Below are positions 17,933 to 64,000 of a stretch of DNA of 64,000 nt, in pieces. The stretch is from positions 141,224-205,223 of the forward strand of contig JARLIA010000005.1 of NCBI GenBank assembly GCA_031291955.1, written 5' to 3'. Numbering within the stretch: position 1 is the first letter of the stretch; each line of letters starts with the position of its first letter. The notes under the pieces are model-generated. The model was given only the letters and a program-made list of their open reading frames with translations. It searched no databases and was not told the DNA's origin. The DNA is from Minisyncoccota bacterium (lineage in GTDB: Bacteria > Patescibacteriota > Minisyncoccia > Moranbacterales > UBA2206). A program made the translations under genes and the position numbers.

Positions 17933-18019
17933 CGGAGAGACAGGGATTCGAACCCTGGAAGGGATTTCTCCCTTAGCACATTAGCAGTGTGCTGCTTTCA
18001 GCCACTCAGCCATCTCTCC
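17933..18019 (-). tRNA. tRNA-Ser (anticodon GCT)
   Basis: The reverse complement is GGAGAGATGGCTGAGTGGCTGAAAGCAGCACACTGCTAATGTGCTAAGGGAGAAATCCCTTCCAGGGTTCGAATCCCTGTCTCTCCG. Long variable arm. No CCA encoded. Confidence 0.8.
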
Positions 18020-18035
18020 AAAATATTAAATTGTG

Positions 18036-18122
18036 CGGAAGCGGAGGGATTCGAACCCCCGGTGCCGTTTCCGGCACAACAGTTTTCAAGACTGTCGCCT
18101 TCAACCACTCGGCCACGCTTCC
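18036..18122 (-). tRNA. tRNA-Ser (anticodon TGA)
   Basis: The reverse complement is GGAAGCGTGGCCGAGTGGTTGAAGGCGACAGTCTTGAAAACTGTTGTGCCGGAAACGGCACCGGGGGTTCGAATCCCTCCGCTTCCG. Long variable arm. A TTTACA-N17-TATGAT promoter-like sequence lies just upstream on the minus strand. Confidence 0.8.
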
Positions 18123-18254
18123 CTCGGCTCATCAAATGTCAGCCGTTCGAGTAGTTCCTATCATACCAAGGATAAATATAATTGTAAATATATCAACCCG
18201 GATGTATAATAACAGCGTGACAAAATTCCGATCAAATTATAAAACAAAAATATT

Positions 18255-18821
18255 ATGTACGTAGAAAAACACACCAGCAACGGGCCGCTGCGACCCGGCC
18301 GACGGGAGGAATGGAAAGAGTTGGAGGCGCCACAAGAGCGGCTGATTGAGGAGCATTCTGAAGACGTGATTTTTAGCTGGCGGGCGCCCGAGTTTGAAAA
18401 ATTCGAGCGTGATCGGAAATGGTATTTTGTTGTCGCTCTCATTTTGGCCGCTATCGTATCGTATGCTATCTGGACCAATAGTCCCGTGATGGCCATTACG
18501 TTCATCCTGATCGGCGTAGTCGGCTATGTATATGTGGAAAAAGATCCGCGCGAATTGTATTTTGCCCTTGCTGAAGATGGCATTATCGCCGGGCGGGAAA
18601 TTTATGAATTCAATAATCTGGAATCATTCTGGATTTTTTACGAACCAGGCGATATCAAGGTCATTAGTCTCAAAACCAAAAGCCATCTGGTGCCGTATGT
18701 CCACATTCCGATTCATGATCAGGATCCGGTTGCTATTCGGAAGGTCCTTTTAGATTATATTCCGGAGGAAAAGCATGAACCGGGATTCATAGAGGCGATT
18801 GATCGCTTGTTGAGGCTGTAG
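18255..18821 (+). CDS. Hypothetical membrane protein (2 TM)
   Basis: Preceded by a near-consensus TTGTAA-N17-TATAAT promoter at about 18179-18211. Two TM helices. No recognisable domain. Confidence 0.4.
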   Translation: MYVEKHTSNGPLRPGRREEWKELEAPQERLIEEHSEDVIFSWRAPEFEKFERDRKWYFVVALILAAIVSYAIWTNSPVMAITFILIGVVGYVYVEKDPRELYFALAEDGIIAGREIYEFNNLESFWIFYEPGDIKVISLKTKSHLVPYVHIPIHDQDPVAIRKVLLDYIPEEKHEPGFIEAIDRLLRL

Positions 18822-18943
18822 CTTATGTAATTTAACCGTGTGGTTCGAGCGGCAAACTCGGGCTAGGTTTAATTTGGCAAATCTATTTTTTCTGTTGACT
18901 GTTGCTATAATTTATTATCCGTAATATGATTATTTGAGGCGGG

Positions 18944-19016
18944 CGGGCTGTAGTATACTGGTAGTACGCGTCCATGGGGTGGATGTAGACTGGGTTCGAT
19001 TCCCAGCAGCCCGACC
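18944..19016 (+). tRNA. tRNA-Pro (anticodon GGG), CCA encoded
   Basis: CGGGCTGTAGTATACTGGTAGTACGCGTCCATGGGGTGGATGTAGACTGGGTTCGATTCCCAGCAGCCCGACCA. Confidence 0.75.
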
Positions 19017-19021
19017 AGAAA

Positions 19022-19092
19022 CGGAGTGTGGTATAGTGGTATTACGCACGATTCGGGTTCGTGTAATCCGGGTTCGATTCCCGGCACTCCGA
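19022..19092 (+). tRNA. tRNA-Pro (anticodon CGG)
   Basis: CGGAGTGTGGTATAGTGGTATTACGCACGATTCGGGTTCGTGTAATCCGGGTTCGATTCCCGGCACTCCGA. Its 3' 25 nt are repeated at 21491-21515. Confidence 0.75.
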
Positions 19093-44164: not shown

Positions 44165-44238
44165 AGCGGGGTAGAGCAGTCTGGTAGCTCGGGTGGCTCA
44201 TAACCACCAGGTCGTGGGTTCGAATCCCACCCCCGCAA
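44165..44238 (+). tRNA. tRNA-Met (anticodon CAT), possible initiator (1:72 A-A mismatch)
   Basis: AGCGGGGTAGAGCAGTCTGGTAGCTCGGGTGGCTCATAACCACC...GTGGGTTCGAATCCCACCCCCGCA. Position 1 and position 72 do not pair. No CCA encoded. Confidence 0.7.
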
Positions 44239-44252
44239 CATAGTTTATTTTT

Positions 44253-44326
44253 GCCAGGGTAGCTCAGCTGGCTAGAGCGCAGCACTCATAACGCTGAGGT
44301 CGAGAGTTCGAGTCTCTCCCCTGGTA
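44253..44326 (+). tRNA. tRNA with CAT anticodon (elongator Met or lysidine-modified Ile2)
   Basis: GCCAGGGTAGCTCAGCTGGCTAGAGCGCAGCACTCATAACGCTGAGGTCGAGAGTTCGAGTCTCTCCCCTGGTA. G1-U72 wobble. No CCA encoded. Confidence 0.7.
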
Positions 44327-44330
44327 CGCG

Positions 44331-44452
44331 AATGAAATTTTCAATTATCAATTTACAATTTTCAATGAACGCATAATTTCTTAATTTTTAATTTTGAAAT
44401 TAAATTATTAAAAATTGTTTAAAAATTAAAAATTGGAAATTCGAAATTTAAT
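44331..44452. repeat. Heptamer-repeat inverted-repeat element, copy B
   Basis: GAAATTTTCAATTATCAATTTACAATTTTCAATG ... AAAATTGTTTAAAAATTAAAAATTGGAAATTCGAAATTTA. The reverse complement of the right arm matches the canonical left arm. Lies between two tRNA genes. Confidence 0.65.
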
Positions 44453-44455
44453 CAT

Positions 44456-44532
44456 GGGGGCGTAGCTCAGTTGGTTAGAGCGACTGCCTGTCACGCAGTA
44501 GGTCGCCGGTTCGAGTCCGGTCGTCCCCGCCA
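44456..44532 (+). tRNA. tRNA-Asp (anticodon GTC), CCA encoded
   Basis: GGGGGCGTAGCTCAGTTGGTTAGAGCGACTGCCTGTCACGCAGTAGGTCGCCGGTTCGAGTCCGGTCGTCCCCGCCA. Followed by an AACCC-TTCAGT-GGGTT hairpin and a T-run (terminator at about 44534-44562). Confidence 0.8.
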
Positions 44533-61153: not shown

Positions 61154-62213
61154 ATGAATACGCTTAACCGACCGATCTGGTTTTTCCCTGCCCAGCCGCT
61201 TAAACTATTAGATGAATATGACCGTTGGCGGCAAGTAGCCAAAATACTCAAATTATCCAAAGAGGCCTGCCTCCGGCTGGAATGGATCATCTATTATTGC
61301 GAAGGCCACGCCGCCACCTCGACTGCCAGGCATTATGGCATTTCCCGAAAGACTTTTTACAAATGGTTCAAAGTTTTTGATCGGGATAATTTGTATAGCC
61401 TCTATCAACTGGAAGACAAATCCAAGGCTCCCAAAAAAACCAGACAGCGGGAAATCACTCCCATTCAGGAACAGAGAATTATCCAGTTAAGAAAACGGTA
61501 TATCCGTTGGGGCAAAGAGAAGTTAGCGGTCATTTACCAGGAAGAATTTGGAGAAAAGATATCCGCTTGGAAAATCCAGAAAGTGATTGAGAATTGGAAG
61601 CTGTATTATCACCCGCAAAAAGCCTACAAAAACAAGCTCAAAAGAAGAAAAAACAAAAAGAAAAAGCGGATTACCGAACTTAAATTGGACAAAAAGGTTT
61701 CAGTTCCAGAAGAAAGCCGGCTACATCGTCTGCCTGGACACGGTGGAAGCAAGATGGAACAGTTTGAAAAGATATATTTTTACCGCCGTGGATAAATACG
61801 GCAAAGTGGCTTACGCCCGTATGTACAAAAACAAAAGTTCCAGTAACGGTGAAGATTTCCTCTATCGGTTGCATTTTCTTTTAGATGGCAAGATTCCAAG
61901 AGTTGGTCACGATAACGGATCTGAATTTGAAAAGTGTTTCCGGTCCGCCTGCGAGAAACTGAAAATCGAGCAATATTACTCTCGTGTGAGAACCCCCAAA
62001 GACAATCCCAACAACGAAAGATTTAATCGGACGCTGCGGGAAGAATTTATCGCCCTGGGGAATTTCCATTCCGACCCGGAAGTATTCAACAAACATCTGA
62101 CGGAGTGGCTCATCGAATACAATTTCAAAAGGCCTCATGAGGCTCTGGGATATCGGACGCCCATGAAAGCCAGCCACTTGTCACCTATGTACTCATCTTG
62201 TACAGTGACTTGA
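61154..62213 (+). mobile_element. IS481-like insertion sequence with the transposase split by a +1 frameshift in an A-rich run
   Basis: orfA (61154..61795) has an N-terminal HTH. orfB (61587..62213) has an rve DDE core (YIVCLDTVE..., GHDNGSEF, NNERFNRTLREEF). The frame switch falls in AGAAAAAACAAAAAGAAAAAG at about 61650-61670. Terminal inverted repeats were not identified. Confidence 0.65.
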
Positions 62214-62281
62214 CAAAAAGATGTTTTGGGTGTATGGTGGCTAGTCAGTATAGTTCTTTTATTTTTTACATATATTATGAA

Positions 62282-62340
62282 TCATTGCAGCTTTGAGGAA
62301 GTTTGGAATAAATTTTTTTGAAGCTGCAATGATAATTAGT
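62282..62340. other. Perfect 13 bp inverted repeat (ATCATTGCAGCTT...AAGCTGCAATGAT) with about a 30 nt spacer
   Basis: Seen directly in the sequence between the IS and the DGR target gene. Could be a terminator or regulatory hairpin. Confidence 0.4.
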
Positions 62341-62402
62341 GAGTCTTGATGCCGGCATAGGGCTGGTATAAGGACAATCTAAACAAGAGAAAGGGACTGA
62401 CC

Positions 62403-63041
62403 ATGAAAGACATGCTCGGTACGTTGGTACGAAAGATTGTGGACCTCCCGCTGGATGTGATTCGGGTGCTCTGCGATCTGGTGGAAAAGCTGTCAGGTGA
62501 GGCAGGTCAGCAATGGCTTGCTGAACTCAAAAATTTTCTCCGTAAAGAAAATTGCTGGACTGGCGTTGTCGTGGAGACCATTCTGCGACTAATATCTATT
62601 GGTGAGTCACTCGTCCTCGACGCTGCGGATGGCAAAGAAATTCTGGCAAAGGCGAAGGATGTATTTGCCTACATCGATCCCGATTTCAAAAATTGGGGTG
62701 CTGATGAACCCGGATCGGCAACTGGCGAAATGCCAGTTGCTGTCTATGAGATGACGCAGGACGGCACTTTTGCGCATATATTCGGTTCACTGAATGCCGA
62801 TGTGTACAAGCTTTGCTTCACACAGGCCCAGATCAAGGCCTTTGTGAAAAAGCACCGCCGTTGGCTTCGAACTGATGGCTATGGAACATTTTTCCTGTTC
62901 CGGTCACATGGTGAAGTCTTCGTTGCCGACGTCAACTTCATCTCTGGTGCTTCGCTGAGAGTCCACGTCTACCGGTTCGGGTACGACTATGTCTGGAATG
63001 TCGCCTATCGTCCTCGCGTGGTAGTTCCGCAACTGGCTTGA
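62403..63041 (+). CDS. DGR target protein (variable C-terminus)
   Basis: The 212-aa ORF's last ~38 codons (about 115 nt) form the VR partner of the downstream TR. The N-terminal region has no recognisable domain. Confidence 0.7.
   Translation: MKDMLGTLVRKIVDLPLDVIRVLCDLVEKLSGEAGQQWLAELKNFLRKENCWTGVVVETILRLISIGESLVLDAADGKEILAKAKDVFAYIDPDFKNWGADEPGSATGEMPVAVYEMTQDGTFAHIFGSLNADVYKLCFTQAQIKAFVKKHRRWLRTDGYGTFFLFRSHGEVFVADVNFISGASLRVHVYRFGYDYVWNVAYRPRVVVPQLA
62917..63033 (+). repeat. DGR variable repeat (VR)
   Basis: 117 nt aligned with the TR at 63346-63462. Across the core, all 15 mismatches are positions where the TR has A and the VR has G, C or T. The 3' ends diverge in an IMH-like way. Confidence 0.85.
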
Positions 63042-63073
63042 ACCTTTCTCTCTCTGTTATTTTGACTCTTTGT

Positions 63074-63121
63074 CCCTCGGATTCTTTGACACTTGGAATC
63101 CGGGGGATTTTTTTGTATAAT
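63074..63121 (+). terminator. Intrinsic terminator after the target gene, then an extended -10 promoter TGTATAAT
   Basis: CCCTCGGATTC-TTTGACACTTG-GAATCCGGGGG with T7. TGTATAAT at 63114-63121 could drive the TR transcript. Confidence 0.5.
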
Positions 63122-63345
63122 AAAAATGCAGCCAGGAAAACTTCGCGGCTACGGCTTCGGGCCAAGGTTGCTGAAAATTGCCATTCGGGAGTTTCGCCGG
63201 ATATGTCTTGCGAAAGAGAGGATGCCTTTTTCAAATAAAAAAAATAGCCAGTTGGTGCGGTAAGCTGGAGGACTTCGATGTCCCGAATAAGATACAATCC
63301 CGAGAGTATTCAAGGGATGGTGGAACAGATGGCTTATCGCACATT

Positions 63346-63462
63346 TCTTCGTTGCCAACGTCAACTTCAACTCTGATGATTCGCTGAAAGTCAACGTCAA
63401 CCGGTTCGAGAACGACAATGTCTGGAATGTCGACAATCGTCATCGCGTGGTAGTTCCGAAAC
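63346..63462 (+). repeat. DGR template repeat (TR)
   Basis: Read in the VR frame, the TR encodes VANVNFNSDDSLKVNVNRFENDNVWNVDNRHRVVVPKLAN, rich in AAC and AAT codons. This is the hallmark of DGR templates. Confidence 0.85.
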
Positions 63463-63480
63463 TTGCTAATTTTCTCCCGT

Positions 63481-63840
63481 TCATTTGGCGGGAGTTTTCT
63501 TTTGTTTTTCGATTAGTCCTTTTTTCCAACCGCCGAGCTGGCGCCCGATCTCTTCCAGTTTTTGGGAAAGTTCGATATATTTTTCCGTCGGAATGAGTTT
63601 GTTTTCCCAGGTGATTTGCGCGAAGAATTTCAAAATATCGTGGCGGGGAATGATTTTTCCCAAAAGAATTATCTTTTTATCCACTGGCAGATAGGCGGCG
63701 GTAAAAGTGTATTCCAGAATTTGGATGAAAAGTTGGGAAATTTTTTGTCCCAGACTAAAACGCTCCGCTTTGGGCATGTCGCGGTTAATAATTTGCCAAT
63801 ATCGATATGCCTCTTTTTCTTTTTGGATAACGGCGGGCAA
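63481..63840 (-). CDS. Four-helix-bundle protein, Avd-like DGR accessory variability determinant (PF05635-like)
   Basis: 119-aa basic helical protein. The C-terminal half (DILKFFAQITWENKLIPTEKYIELSQKLEEIGRQLGGWKKGL) matches the four-helix-bundle/Avd family pattern. It sits between the TR and the RT but on the opposite strand. Confidence 0.45.
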   Translation of the reverse strand: MPAVIQKEKEAYRYWQIINRDMPKAERFSLGQKISQLFIQILEYTFTAAYLPVDKKIILLGKIIPRHDILKFFAQITWENKLIPTEKYIELSQKLEEIGRQLGGWKKGLIEKQKKTPAK

Positions 63841-63872
63841 CTCCCTTGGGGGGGGGCGTTAAAGGGTTGTAA

Positions 63873-64000
63873 TTTTTGTTATGAAAATTCAATTGGCCCA
63901 TAAATTTGAAGATATTGTTAGTGTTGAAAATCTGCTGGAAGCGTGGAAGGAATTTATTTGCGGCAAGAAGAATAAAAAAGATGTGCAAGAATTTCCACTT
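63873..64000 (+). CDS. DGR-type reverse transcriptase, N-terminal fragment (runs off window)
   Basis: MKIQLAHKFEDIVSVENLLEAWKEFICGKKNKKDVQEF closely parallels the N-terminus of DGR RTs (compare bRT ...ITTWENLLDAYRKTSHGKRRTWGYLEF). Confidence 0.7.

Follow-up and report, generated by a model that had tools for sequence, protein, structure and literature searches.

The 3' end of the window (the whole 64,000-nt stretch of DNA analysed) carries an ordinary diversity-generating retroelement (DGR), of the kind usual in Patescibacteria (CPR). It is very probable that this locus is complete and apparently functional, inclusive of the upstream-RNA mechanism that we infer for it, and comparative sequence analysis of more than 100 related loci suggests that the priming and stop structures of its template RNA lie upstream of the template, unlike those of the Bordetella phage. 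The components follow in the order target gene (+), template repeat (TR) at 63346-63467 (+), avd at 63481-63840 (-) and reverse transcriptase (RT) from 63881 (+).

A repeat search and base-by-base comparison define a 122-nt repeat that occupies codons 173-212 of the target gene (62917-63038, + strand; the variable repeat, VR) and recurs 429 nt downstream (63346-63467, + strand; the TR) with 88% identity, just where the earlier note had placed the second copy. The core of the repeat (62917-63033 against 63346-63462) contains 14 mismatches, in each of which an adenine in the TR is replaced in the VR by another base (5 T, 5 C, 4 G). The changes affect 14 of the 31 TR adenines and none of the 86 non-adenines (Fisher p = 5.8e-10). 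The earlier note, which proposed that these mismatches be tallied on an alignment, had counted 15 core differences, all from template adenine to target non-adenine. The restriction to adenines holds, with all 14 core mismatches at TR adenines and none elsewhere, whereas the count does not; the fifteenth difference of the 122-nt repeat, T63464/G63035, is at a non-adenine site beyond the core as that note delimited it.

The TR adenines fall at codon positions 1 or 2 in 28 of 31 cases, and the TR encodes nine Asn codons, consistent with the Asn-rich reading first given to it. As in other DGRs, the VR lies within a protein-coding target, the TR adenines are placed so as to avoid stop codons, and the TR/VR differences are confined to TR adenines. 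The variable codons of the VR are 176, 180, 182, 183, 186, 188, 190, 193, 194, 196, 201, 202, 204 and 210. A degenerate pattern built from the TR finds two copies only in the window, the VR and the TR themselves, where none is expected by chance.

The target gene (62403-63041, + strand, from the list of open reading frames) encodes a 212-residue protein with the VR at its C-terminus. An IS element lies directly upstream of it. AF2 models, with pLDDT values of 86.9 over the full protein and 93.8 when the domain is modelled by itself, predict a three-helix N-terminal region (residues 2-46) followed by a 155-residue alpha/beta domain (58-212) that bears the VR. The target has no match in Pfam or NCBIfam, a Pfam search of 103 family members gives nothing consistent, a profile search against PDB sequences finds nothing, and Foldseek comparison of the model with the PDB returns no significant match. 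To the suggestion that the variable codons might lie on a C-type-lectin-like face, the models give a weak answer only, and the VR domain would be at most a remote C-type-lectin relative. Among known systems, its nearest counterparts would be the C-type-lectin-fold DGR variable proteins Mtd, TvpA (2y3c) and AvpA. The earlier note had called this target unusual. It proves instead to belong to a large Patescibacteria family, with at least 362 homologues in a 90%-identity database and ∼2,600 clusters at 50% identity, in which its own 90%-identity cluster is a single sequence. Across the family the hypervariable columns are exactly the TR-adenine codons.

The avd gene (63481-63840, - strand) begins with TTG and encodes 119 residues; its start is matched at other loci, where tblastn alignments begin at residues 1-2. 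As had been supposed from the open reading frame, the product is an Avd accessory protein, matching Pfam PF22296 (bAvd) over profile positions 4-106 with 47.2 bits, above the cut-off of 40; the top NCBIfam match is DivGenRetAVD, but at 62.6 bits it falls under the cut-off of 80. The first 40 codons of the RT occupy 63881-64000 (+ strand). The earlier note had correctly described a DGR-class RT that runs past the window edge, although it placed the start at 63882 and not at 63881. Contig L002, which is 100% identical to window positions 62176-64000, supplies the complete 344-residue enzyme (L002:1706-2740) and with it the YxDD box that was to be sought, in the form YADD. The RT matches RVT_1 with an E-value of 1e-28, and its best match in the PDB is Bordetella phage bRT (8ub7_A, E 2.9e-40), ahead of group II intron RTs (7e-22). 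This best match, together with the motif 4 sequence GLPLGNLTSQLF (SQ motif, LGNLTSQ) and YADD, assigns it to the DGR clade. The essential proposal of the earlier note is borne out: in this CPR genome a DGR, equipped with Avd and a DGR-class RT, varies the C-terminal end of a small protein.

The arrangement of these genes is common. Among the loci retrieved through target homologues, 49 of 79 show the order target(+)-TR(+)-Avd(-)-RT(+), with the TR mostly ∼425-470 nt from the VR (range 384-602) and mismatches nearly all at TR adenines. Of the loci retrieved through the RT, all 68 with a tblastn match to Avd have it on the minus strand immediately upstream of the RT; a further 12, whose upstream sequence is too short, were left out of this count. 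Dozens of related genomes carry the same cassette, each with its own adenine-specific VR/TR differences. An inverted avd gene lying between TR and RT had been thought unusual, but TR-(avd)-RT with reverse-strand avd is architecture B3 of Wu et al. 2018 (PMC5758913), which accounts for 90% of published CPR DGRs, and the core order of the present locus is the same. The locus resembles the CPR/DPANN B3 DGRs (Wu et al. 2018 NAR 46:11, PMC5758913; clade 2 of Roux et al. 2021, PMC8144416) in component order, inverted avd, Patescibacteria host and RT and Avd homology, and their 'UVR' classes in having a small target whose C-terminus bears the VR and in which no domain is recognisable. It shows no essential difference from them and is a further member.

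The gap between target and TR, ∼305 nt here, is kept at ∼300-330 nt across related loci, and contains several conserved features. The first is a GC-rich hairpin, CCCTCGGATTC...GAATCCGGGGG followed by a T-run (63073-63107, + strand), that starts 32 nt past the target stop codon. Its DNA fold has z = -3.8 and its sequence is conserved in 49 loci; a terminator scan scores only a short 5-pair stem in its 3' part (63092-63104), plus the T-run. We conclude that this hairpin is the target-gene terminator, and it is possibly the counterpart of the hairpin found downstream of the phage VR. Overlapping it is a predicted promoter-like site (63093-63121, + strand; TTGGAA, a 17-nt spacer and TATAAT) that scores 10 of 12 matches in a scan. 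The -10 box (63116-63121) falls at the same alignment column in related loci, being TATAAT or TATACT in 43 of 49 and a one-base variant in the other six. An extended -10 (TGn) reading was rejected, as the TG abuts TATAAT directly.

From 63128 to 63345 (+ strand) follows a structured domain of ∼215 nt, recognised with RNAalifold and by covariation, which would form the 5' part of the TR RNA. Its first four helices are 63128-31/63167-71, 63142-49/63154-61, 63182-86/63220-24 and 63192-200/63207-15, and the remaining three are 63255-66/63331-42, 63270-73/63280-83 and 63297-301/63314-18. Of its 47 pairs, 38 show compensatory changes according to RNAalifold and 39 by pair count, and 95.2% of cells are paired compared with 78.6% in shuffles and ∼45% in slid controls. 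A covariance model of the domain, against which the present locus scores 119 bits, matches 58 of 60 independent loci retrieved through the RT that have enough upstream sequence; these carry other target families and in no case this one. The matches are always on the + strand, ∼500-640 nt before the RT; in the independent loci pairing is seen in 95.8% of cells, with compensatory changes at 18 of 20 pairs. Rfam scans, by gathering threshold and by E-value, give only tRNAs and chance-level matches, and no RT-motif family at E <= 10. We found no description of a DGR RNA with such an upstream domain in Rfam 15 or the searchable literature, and the accessible portions of Wu et al. 2018 (PMC5758913) and Roux et al. 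2021 (PMC8144416) make no mention of the domain.

Two elements of this region appear to correspond with functional parts of the phage RNA. One is the 12-bp stop-like helix formed by 63255-63266 and 63331-63342 (+ strand), whose downstream strand ends 3 nt before the TR, and in which 10 of 12 pairs show compensatory changes in the training set and independent set alike. The other is the adjoining primer-like strand UAGCCAGUUGG (63245-63255, + strand), of which 63245-63253 pairs with the 3'-terminal segment of the TR, AACUUGCUA (63460-63468, + strand), an IMH*-like end. The duplex was found by anchoring on AGUUGG in the primer-like strand, invariant within the target family, and on the TR 3' motif; long-range pairs could not be picked out of the noise in a naive all-against-all scan of column covariation, and a stricter stacked-helix scan gave local helices only. 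In the target-retrieved loci, cognate strands pair at -4.76 kcal/mol compared with -2.81 for non-cognate strands (p <= 1e-4), and in the independent set at -6.66 compared with -5.71 (p <= 1e-4). Most related loci have the core motif ACUUGG against ...CAACU in the TR, giving a C-C mismatch, so that most of the pairing comes from the 7-8 nt that precede the motif rather than from a strict 4-bp core.

The adenine changes end at or before 63459, and the adenines at 63460-61, within the duplex, occur in 43-46 of 46 TRs, with 39-42 VRs keeping them unchanged. The difference between A63459 of the TR and C63030 of the VR is itself, to judge from the related sequences, probably a fixed TR/VR difference rather than a product of random mutagenesis, since 29 of the 34 related loci with adenine at the equivalent TR position have C in the VR. 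Given this apparent fixation, the reading of A63459 as the final mutagenised adenine, which would mark the cDNA start, was dropped as firm evidence.

Directly past the TR, and across the avd stop codon, is a further hairpin, CTCCCG...CGGGAG with a U-run (63474-63510, + strand), which is scored by the terminator scan and shows compensatory changes in 46 loci. We infer from its sequence that it provides an intrinsic-terminator-like 3' end to the TR RNA; it is possibly also an Avd-binding stem-loop.

Comparison with the Bordetella phage BPP-1 element, in which the order is mtd-avd-TR-brt and the DGR RNA has been characterised (Handa et al. 2018, PMC6182149; bioRxiv 10.1101/2023.10.23.563531), shows both likeness and rearrangement. 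The two elements share adenine-specific transfer from TR to VR, an RT that matches bRT at 2.9e-40, an Avd partner and a hairpin downstream of the VR. In the phage RNA, Sp53-56 pairs with TR118-121 and Sp59-70 with a segment upstream of the TR (bioRxiv 10.1101/2023.10.23.563531), and here, too, the partner of the TR 3' end adjoins the partner of the sequence just upstream of the TR. In contrast to BPP-1, the present locus has its avd inverted in the interval from TR to RT, the structured RNA is 5' of the TR and not 3', and a terminator-like hairpin comes directly after the TR (within 7 nt). The target differs as well, being no phage tail fibre and having no sequence match to any known CLec family. 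The BPP-1 spacer region is Rfam RT-10 (PMC5737381); between TR and RT of the present locus no Rfam RT motif is found (E <= 10), and the covarying structure is upstream.

These observations suggest the following mechanism. A non-coding RNA of ∼380 nt would be transcribed from the promoter at 63093-63121 and end at the hairpin and U-run at 63474-63510, and would thus not run antisense into avd. Its 215-nt 5' domain would fold and provide, upstream of the TR, a pair of elements that in the phage come from the spacer RNA downstream of it. The strand 63245-63253, followed by the conserved UUGG, would base-pair with the TR 3' end at 63460-63468 and so put the priming nucleotide beside the first template base, at ∼63459 or slightly upstream, while the 12-bp helix 63255-66/63331-42, set against the TR 5' end, would halt cDNA synthesis. 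RT-Avd would copy the TR into cDNA, misincorporating opposite adenines, and the cDNA would replace the VR, randomising ∼14-18 codons that alternate along two β-strands and a loop of what may be a divergent C-type-lectin-like domain. We lean, by a narrow measure, towards the general form of this model, in which B3-type DGRs use a permuted DGR RNA with priming and stop elements in a ∼215-nt domain 5' of the TR, made as a discrete ∼380-nt transcript. If true, it would account for how such elements work with avd inverted right behind the TR, and the TR 3' end (IMH*) would be unlike that of the VR because it has to pair with the upstream domain.

A real DGR could instead be primed as in Bordetella phage, by a spacer-like RNA downstream of the TR and antisense to avd, the upstream RNA serving, for example, in control of TR transcription, RNA stability, Avd/RT binding or as the target 3' UTR. 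Handa et al. describe DGRs, those of CPR among others, with stem-loops and stop duplexes that use sequence downstream of the TR, and a conserved stem-loop does come after the TR here; the 4-nt core of the proposed primer duplex is, moreover, imperfect in most loci. That stem-loop, however, runs into a U-run, is scored as a terminator, and has beyond it the opposite-strand coding sequence of avd. The sequence just upstream of the TR is already engaged with an upstream partner in the 12-bp helix with its 10 covarying pairs, and two independent sets of loci show covariation between the strand adjoining that helix and the TR 3' end. We therefore regard downstream priming as unlikely.

The DGR could also be structurally intact and silent, a relic whose VR was diversified formerly and is now fixed, with the cassette kept through recent decay or purifying selection. 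Such a reading would fit the single VR found in the three assemblies that carry the target protein (one MAG, two Logan runs), the absence of variants in a degenerate VR search of JGI metagenomes (0 matches), the lone sequence in the target's 90%-identity cluster and the IS element upstream. The three assemblies, however, probably represent one population, and are consensus sequences, which conceal minority variants. The RT is complete, with its catalytic motifs, Avd is intact, the TR adenines are kept at codon positions 1 and 2, and the RNA domain fits its model at 119 bits. We consider a silent element doubtful, and an apparently functional DGR the better reading.

The idea that the 3' end of the gene was duplicated and the second copy has since decayed, with its adenine bias a compositional chance and not the product of a retroelement, has nothing to commend it beyond the bare existence of the repeat, and can be dismissed in view of the Fisher p of 5.8e-10, the adjacent Avd and DGR-class RT, the same pattern at ∼45 other loci independently, and a TR that has neither a start codon nor frame continuity with a gene.

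As a DGR the locus is one more example of a class catalogued in 2017-2021, and is of little weight alone. Its target family is very large, with ∼2,600 clusters at 50% identity, and has no Pfam model; the VR domain, predicted with confidence and at most remotely related to C-type lectins, bears on whether all DGR targets use that fold. Inverted-avd DGRs predominate in CPR and to our knowledge have never been studied biochemically. The RNA comparison provides a concrete, testable model of priming and stopping in these elements; if it is true, the Bordetella phage mechanism would extend to inverted-avd DGRs with a rearranged RNA, and the model would define the minimal RNA for reconstituting or engineering them.

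A repeat search finds two 122-nt copies, 62917-63038 and 63346-63467, that share 88% identity at a spacing of 429 nt; the first, the variable repeat (VR), is the 3' end of ORF 62403-63041, and the second, the template repeat (TR), lies downstream. Base-by-base comparison gives 15 mismatches over the 122 nt. Fourteen fall in the core (62917-63033 against 63346-63462), where every one is a TR adenine replaced in the VR by another base (5 T, 5 C, 4 G); the fifteenth, T63464/G63035, is close to the diverging 3' end. Core changes thus affect 14 of the 31 TR adenines and none of the 86 non-adenines (Fisher p = 5.8e-10), and the adenine-only differences described in the earlier note are upheld, with the core count lowered from 15 to 14. 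Codon position 1 or 2 holds 28 of the 31 TR adenines, and the TR contains nine Asn codons. A degenerate TR pattern is found in the 64-kb window at two copies only, the TR and the VR, against a chance expectation of 0.

The accessory gene avd is on the minus strand (63481-63840, 119 aa; Pfam bAvd), followed on the plus strand by a reverse transcriptase (RT) that starts at 63881 and runs past the window edge. The full RT was read from L002, a Logan contig (SRR23300979) that matches window 62176-64000 at 100% identity and extends further. It comprises 344 aa, with GLPLGNLTSQLF and YIRYADDF, so that the YxDD box sought in the extended sequence is present as YADD. It matches RVT_1 (E 1e-28), and its closest solved structure is the Bordetella phage bRT (8ub7_A, E 2.9e-40, nearly full length), with group II intron RTs ranking behind (7e-22). 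Avd scores 47.2 bits against Pfam bAvd (cut-off 40) over profile positions 4-106; it is the top match of NCBIfam DivGenRetAVD, yet under that model's cut-off. Public gene calls give Avd 98 aa (ATG at 63777, 63481-63777). Sequence comparison supports the longer form, 119 aa from TTG 63840, because of the Pfam span and of tblastn matches elsewhere that start at residues 1-2. The exact start is uncertain, since a Shine-Dalgarno-like AAGGGAG directly abuts the TTG. Just upstream of this TTG, within the 40-nt avd-RT intergenic region, is a run of nine G (63848-63856).

The RT 3' end is overlapped by 20 nt by rlmN (radical SAM rRNA methyltransferase; L002:2721-3812), so that the element is set in a chromosomal housekeeping neighbourhood and not in phage DNA. 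An IS-like element (61154-62213, +) immediately precedes the target; it has two overlapping ORFs, 61154-61795 (+; HTH_32/HTH_28 domains) and 61587-62213 (+; rve/rve_3 integrase core), an arrangement pointing to a frameshifted transposase. As expected of a repeated element, two independent Logan contigs stop at window 62176, within the IS 3' end. The stretch separating the IS element from the target gene holds a near-perfect inverted repeat of 24 nt (62281-62333; ATCATTGCAGCTTTGAGGAAGTTT / AAATTTTTTTGAAGCTGCAATGAT), which may represent a terminator or one end of the IS. Nine tRNA genes lie in three clusters (101-297, 17933-19092 and 44165-44529). The source carries the annotation of a Candidatus Pacebacteria MAG (GCA_031291895.1).

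The earlier note considered an opposite-strand avd between TR and RT unusual. This is instead architecture B3, TR-(avd)-RT, as defined by Wu et al. 2018 (PMC5758913), in whose Patescibacteria (CPR) set it accounts for 90%. Among 79 genome loci retrieved via the target family, 49 have the same layout of target (+), TR (+), Avd (-) and then, where the contig extends far enough, RT (+). The VR-to-TR distance in these is mostly about 425-470 nt (range 384-602), and their VR/TR mismatches are almost entirely at TR adenines. In about 25 of the 79 (L005, L008, L009, L020, L022, L023 and others), neither Avd, RT nor TR is found up to 6 kb away from the target homologue; such homologues may be orphans, or may be diversified remotely by a DGR at another place in the genome. 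Several loci have two targets, and in L047 two target copies have identical VR regions with no RT nearby. Signs of a second cassette are seen at L016:6900-9900 (two Avd genes, one RT), at L018:57-1004 (a further RT 5 kb upstream) and at L099:1529-1608 (-), where an extra RNA motif lies on the opposite strand downstream of the RT and is cut by the contig end. Patescibacteria-type cassettes also occur in MAGs labelled Gammaproteobacteria, delta proteobacterium, Ignavibacteria or Nanoarchaeia (L008, L011, L012, L013, L052, L056, L064, L066, L071, L073, L079), which are probably mislabelled or contaminated bins.

From the adenine-only VR/TR differences, Avd and bRT-like RT we conclude that the locus is a real DGR of ordinary architecture and host; the earlier note identified it correctly. 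In each lineage, VR and TR differ at adenines, and the family has therefore been active over its history. At this locus the VR is identical in three assemblies, and a search of JGI contigs found no VR variants.

Nor is the target unusual, as had been proposed. The 212-aa protein has no match in Pfam or NCBIfam; its homologues number at least 362, are about 200-230 aa long and nearly all bear a Patescibacteria label, and the family profile finds 2,600 of 1.84 billion cluster representatives at E <= 1e-3 (971 at E <= 1e-30). In some members the target domain is duplicated or triplicated in tandem (P0121, 476 aa; P0122, 560 aa; P0133, P0134, P0139). In the C-terminal 40 residues, fixed and hypervariable columns alternate as FFVA-x-V-x-F-x-S-xxx-L-x-V-x-V-x-RF-xxxx-VW-x-A-xx-R-x-RVVVPQLA, the hypervariable columns being the TR adenine codons. 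AF2 models of the whole target (pLDDT 86.9) and of residues 58-212 (pLDDT 93.8, pTM 0.90) were obtained; Foldseek with the target model gave no significant match, and a sequence profile search found no solved relatives. As we read it, the modelled VR domain may have a very divergent C-type-lectin-like topology. Roux et al. 2021 (PMC8144416) expected uncharacterised VR domains to prove new variants of this fold. In P0062, P0066, P0080 and P0120 (columns 1-100 of the family alignment A1) the amphipathic N-terminal helices are replaced by a Lys-rich start and a ~19-residue hydrophobic stretch, e.g. AIVSAMGVFMAIISSLVELV, which may be a membrane anchor displaying the variable domain outside the cell.

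Between the target stop codon and the TR is a gap of about 300-330 nt, conserved despite 40-70% protein identity. It contains a GC hairpin with a T-run (63073-63107, +) conserved across loci, a promoter-like site, TTGGAA-17-TATAAT (63093-63121, +), identified by sequence scan, and about 215 nt of conserved sequence. At the -10 box, 43 of 49 loci have TATAAT or TATACT in the same alignment column, and the remaining six have a variant that differs by one base. RNAalifold on 46 loci gives 47 pairs, 38 with compensatory double changes. In pair counting, 95.2% of cells are paired, against 78.6% in shuffled and about 45% in slid controls, and double-change cells number 432 against 129 in shuffled controls. 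Directly 3' of the TR, a hairpin and U-run with a terminator-like score (63474-63510, +) spans the avd stop codon and shows compensatory changes in 46/46 loci. The simplest reading would be one discrete plus-strand RNA of about 380 nt, comprising a 5' domain, the TR and a terminator. An Rfam search of the RNA matched no family, including motifs RT-1 to RT-19 of Weinberg et al. 2017, among them RT-10, the BPP-1 spacer.

In the Bordetella phage BPP-1, the spacer RNA 3' of the TR pairs through Sp53-56 with TR118-121, A56 serving as primer, and through the adjoining Sp59-70 with sequence that immediately precedes the TR, forming a stop duplex (bioRxiv 10.1101/2023.10.23.563531). Handa et al., using 40 nt before and 100 nt after the TR, report for DGRs, CPR ones among them, stem-loops on the downstream side and stop duplexes between upstream and downstream sequence. 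In the present locus a 12-bp helix (63255-66/63331-42) has 10 covarying pairs, and its 3' strand stops 3 nt before the TR. Directly 5' of strand 63255-66 is AGUUGG, invariant in the window's target family, and 63245-63253 (UAGCCAGUU) could form 8 of 9 pairs with the TR 3' end, 63460-63468 (AACUUGCUA). Over 43 distinct loci, cognate duplexes average -4.76 kcal/mol against -2.81 for non-cognate ones (permutation p <= 1e-4); with the variable part taken by itself, the values are -1.81 and -0.11 (p <= 1e-4). The upstream strand would pair with the TR 3' end while the adjoining 12-bp helix would abut the TR 5' side, as do the BPP-1 primer and stop elements. The proposed topology is as in the BPP-1 RNA, but the spacer-like segment lies upstream of the TR here and 3' of it there.

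The TR 3' nucleotides that differ from the VR are the pairing ones, and we offer this as a rationale for the difference between IMH* and IMH, the 3' ends of TR and VR: the TR-specific nucleotides would be kept because they pair with the upstream strand. In a per-position comparison of 46 loci, truly mutagenised TR adenines have mixed VR bases. At TR A63459, 29 of 34 loci have C in the VR; this was rejected as evidence of copying, being a fixed difference that keeps a Gln codon. Adenines 63460-61 are almost never changed (46 loci), so that transfer would end at or before 63459, a position that fits the duplex edge and does not prove it.

A covariance model built on 63240-63351 was used to search an independent set of 80 JGI metagenome loci, found by RT homology alone (59-77% identical). 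Of the 60 loci in which at least 700 nt precede the RT, 58 have one match each, always on the RT strand and ending about 500-640 nt before the RT. None of the RT-retrieved loci encodes the window's target family; their targets are other proteins of about 200 aa with a C-terminal VR 380-550 nt upstream of the TR and adenine-specific differences. In the RNA structure of this set, 95.8% of cells are paired, slid controls reaching 33-57%, and 18 of 20 pairs are compensatory. A 5' hairpin with a GG(C/U)(U/C)A(C/A)GG(C/U)U loop is found by simple pattern match in 27 of 57 loci, sometimes twice. Most of these loci have ACUUGG or AAUUGG as the motif, and the 7-8 nt before it pair with bases just 3' of the TR ...CAACU motif (-6.66 against -5.71 kcal/mol for cognate and non-cognate duplexes, p <= 1e-4). 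Where the motif is ACUUGG, its 4-nt core meets AACU with a C-C mismatch, and a strict four-pair primer helix of the phage kind is therefore not general.

Since the model matches in loci with other targets, we infer that the RNA domain is part of this clade's RT-Avd core and does not belong to one target. No description of a conserved covarying RNA domain 5' of the TR was found in the searchable literature, of which the work of Paul et al. 2017 on CPR was not part. This domain, with its spacer-like topology, is the most interesting by-product of the analysis.
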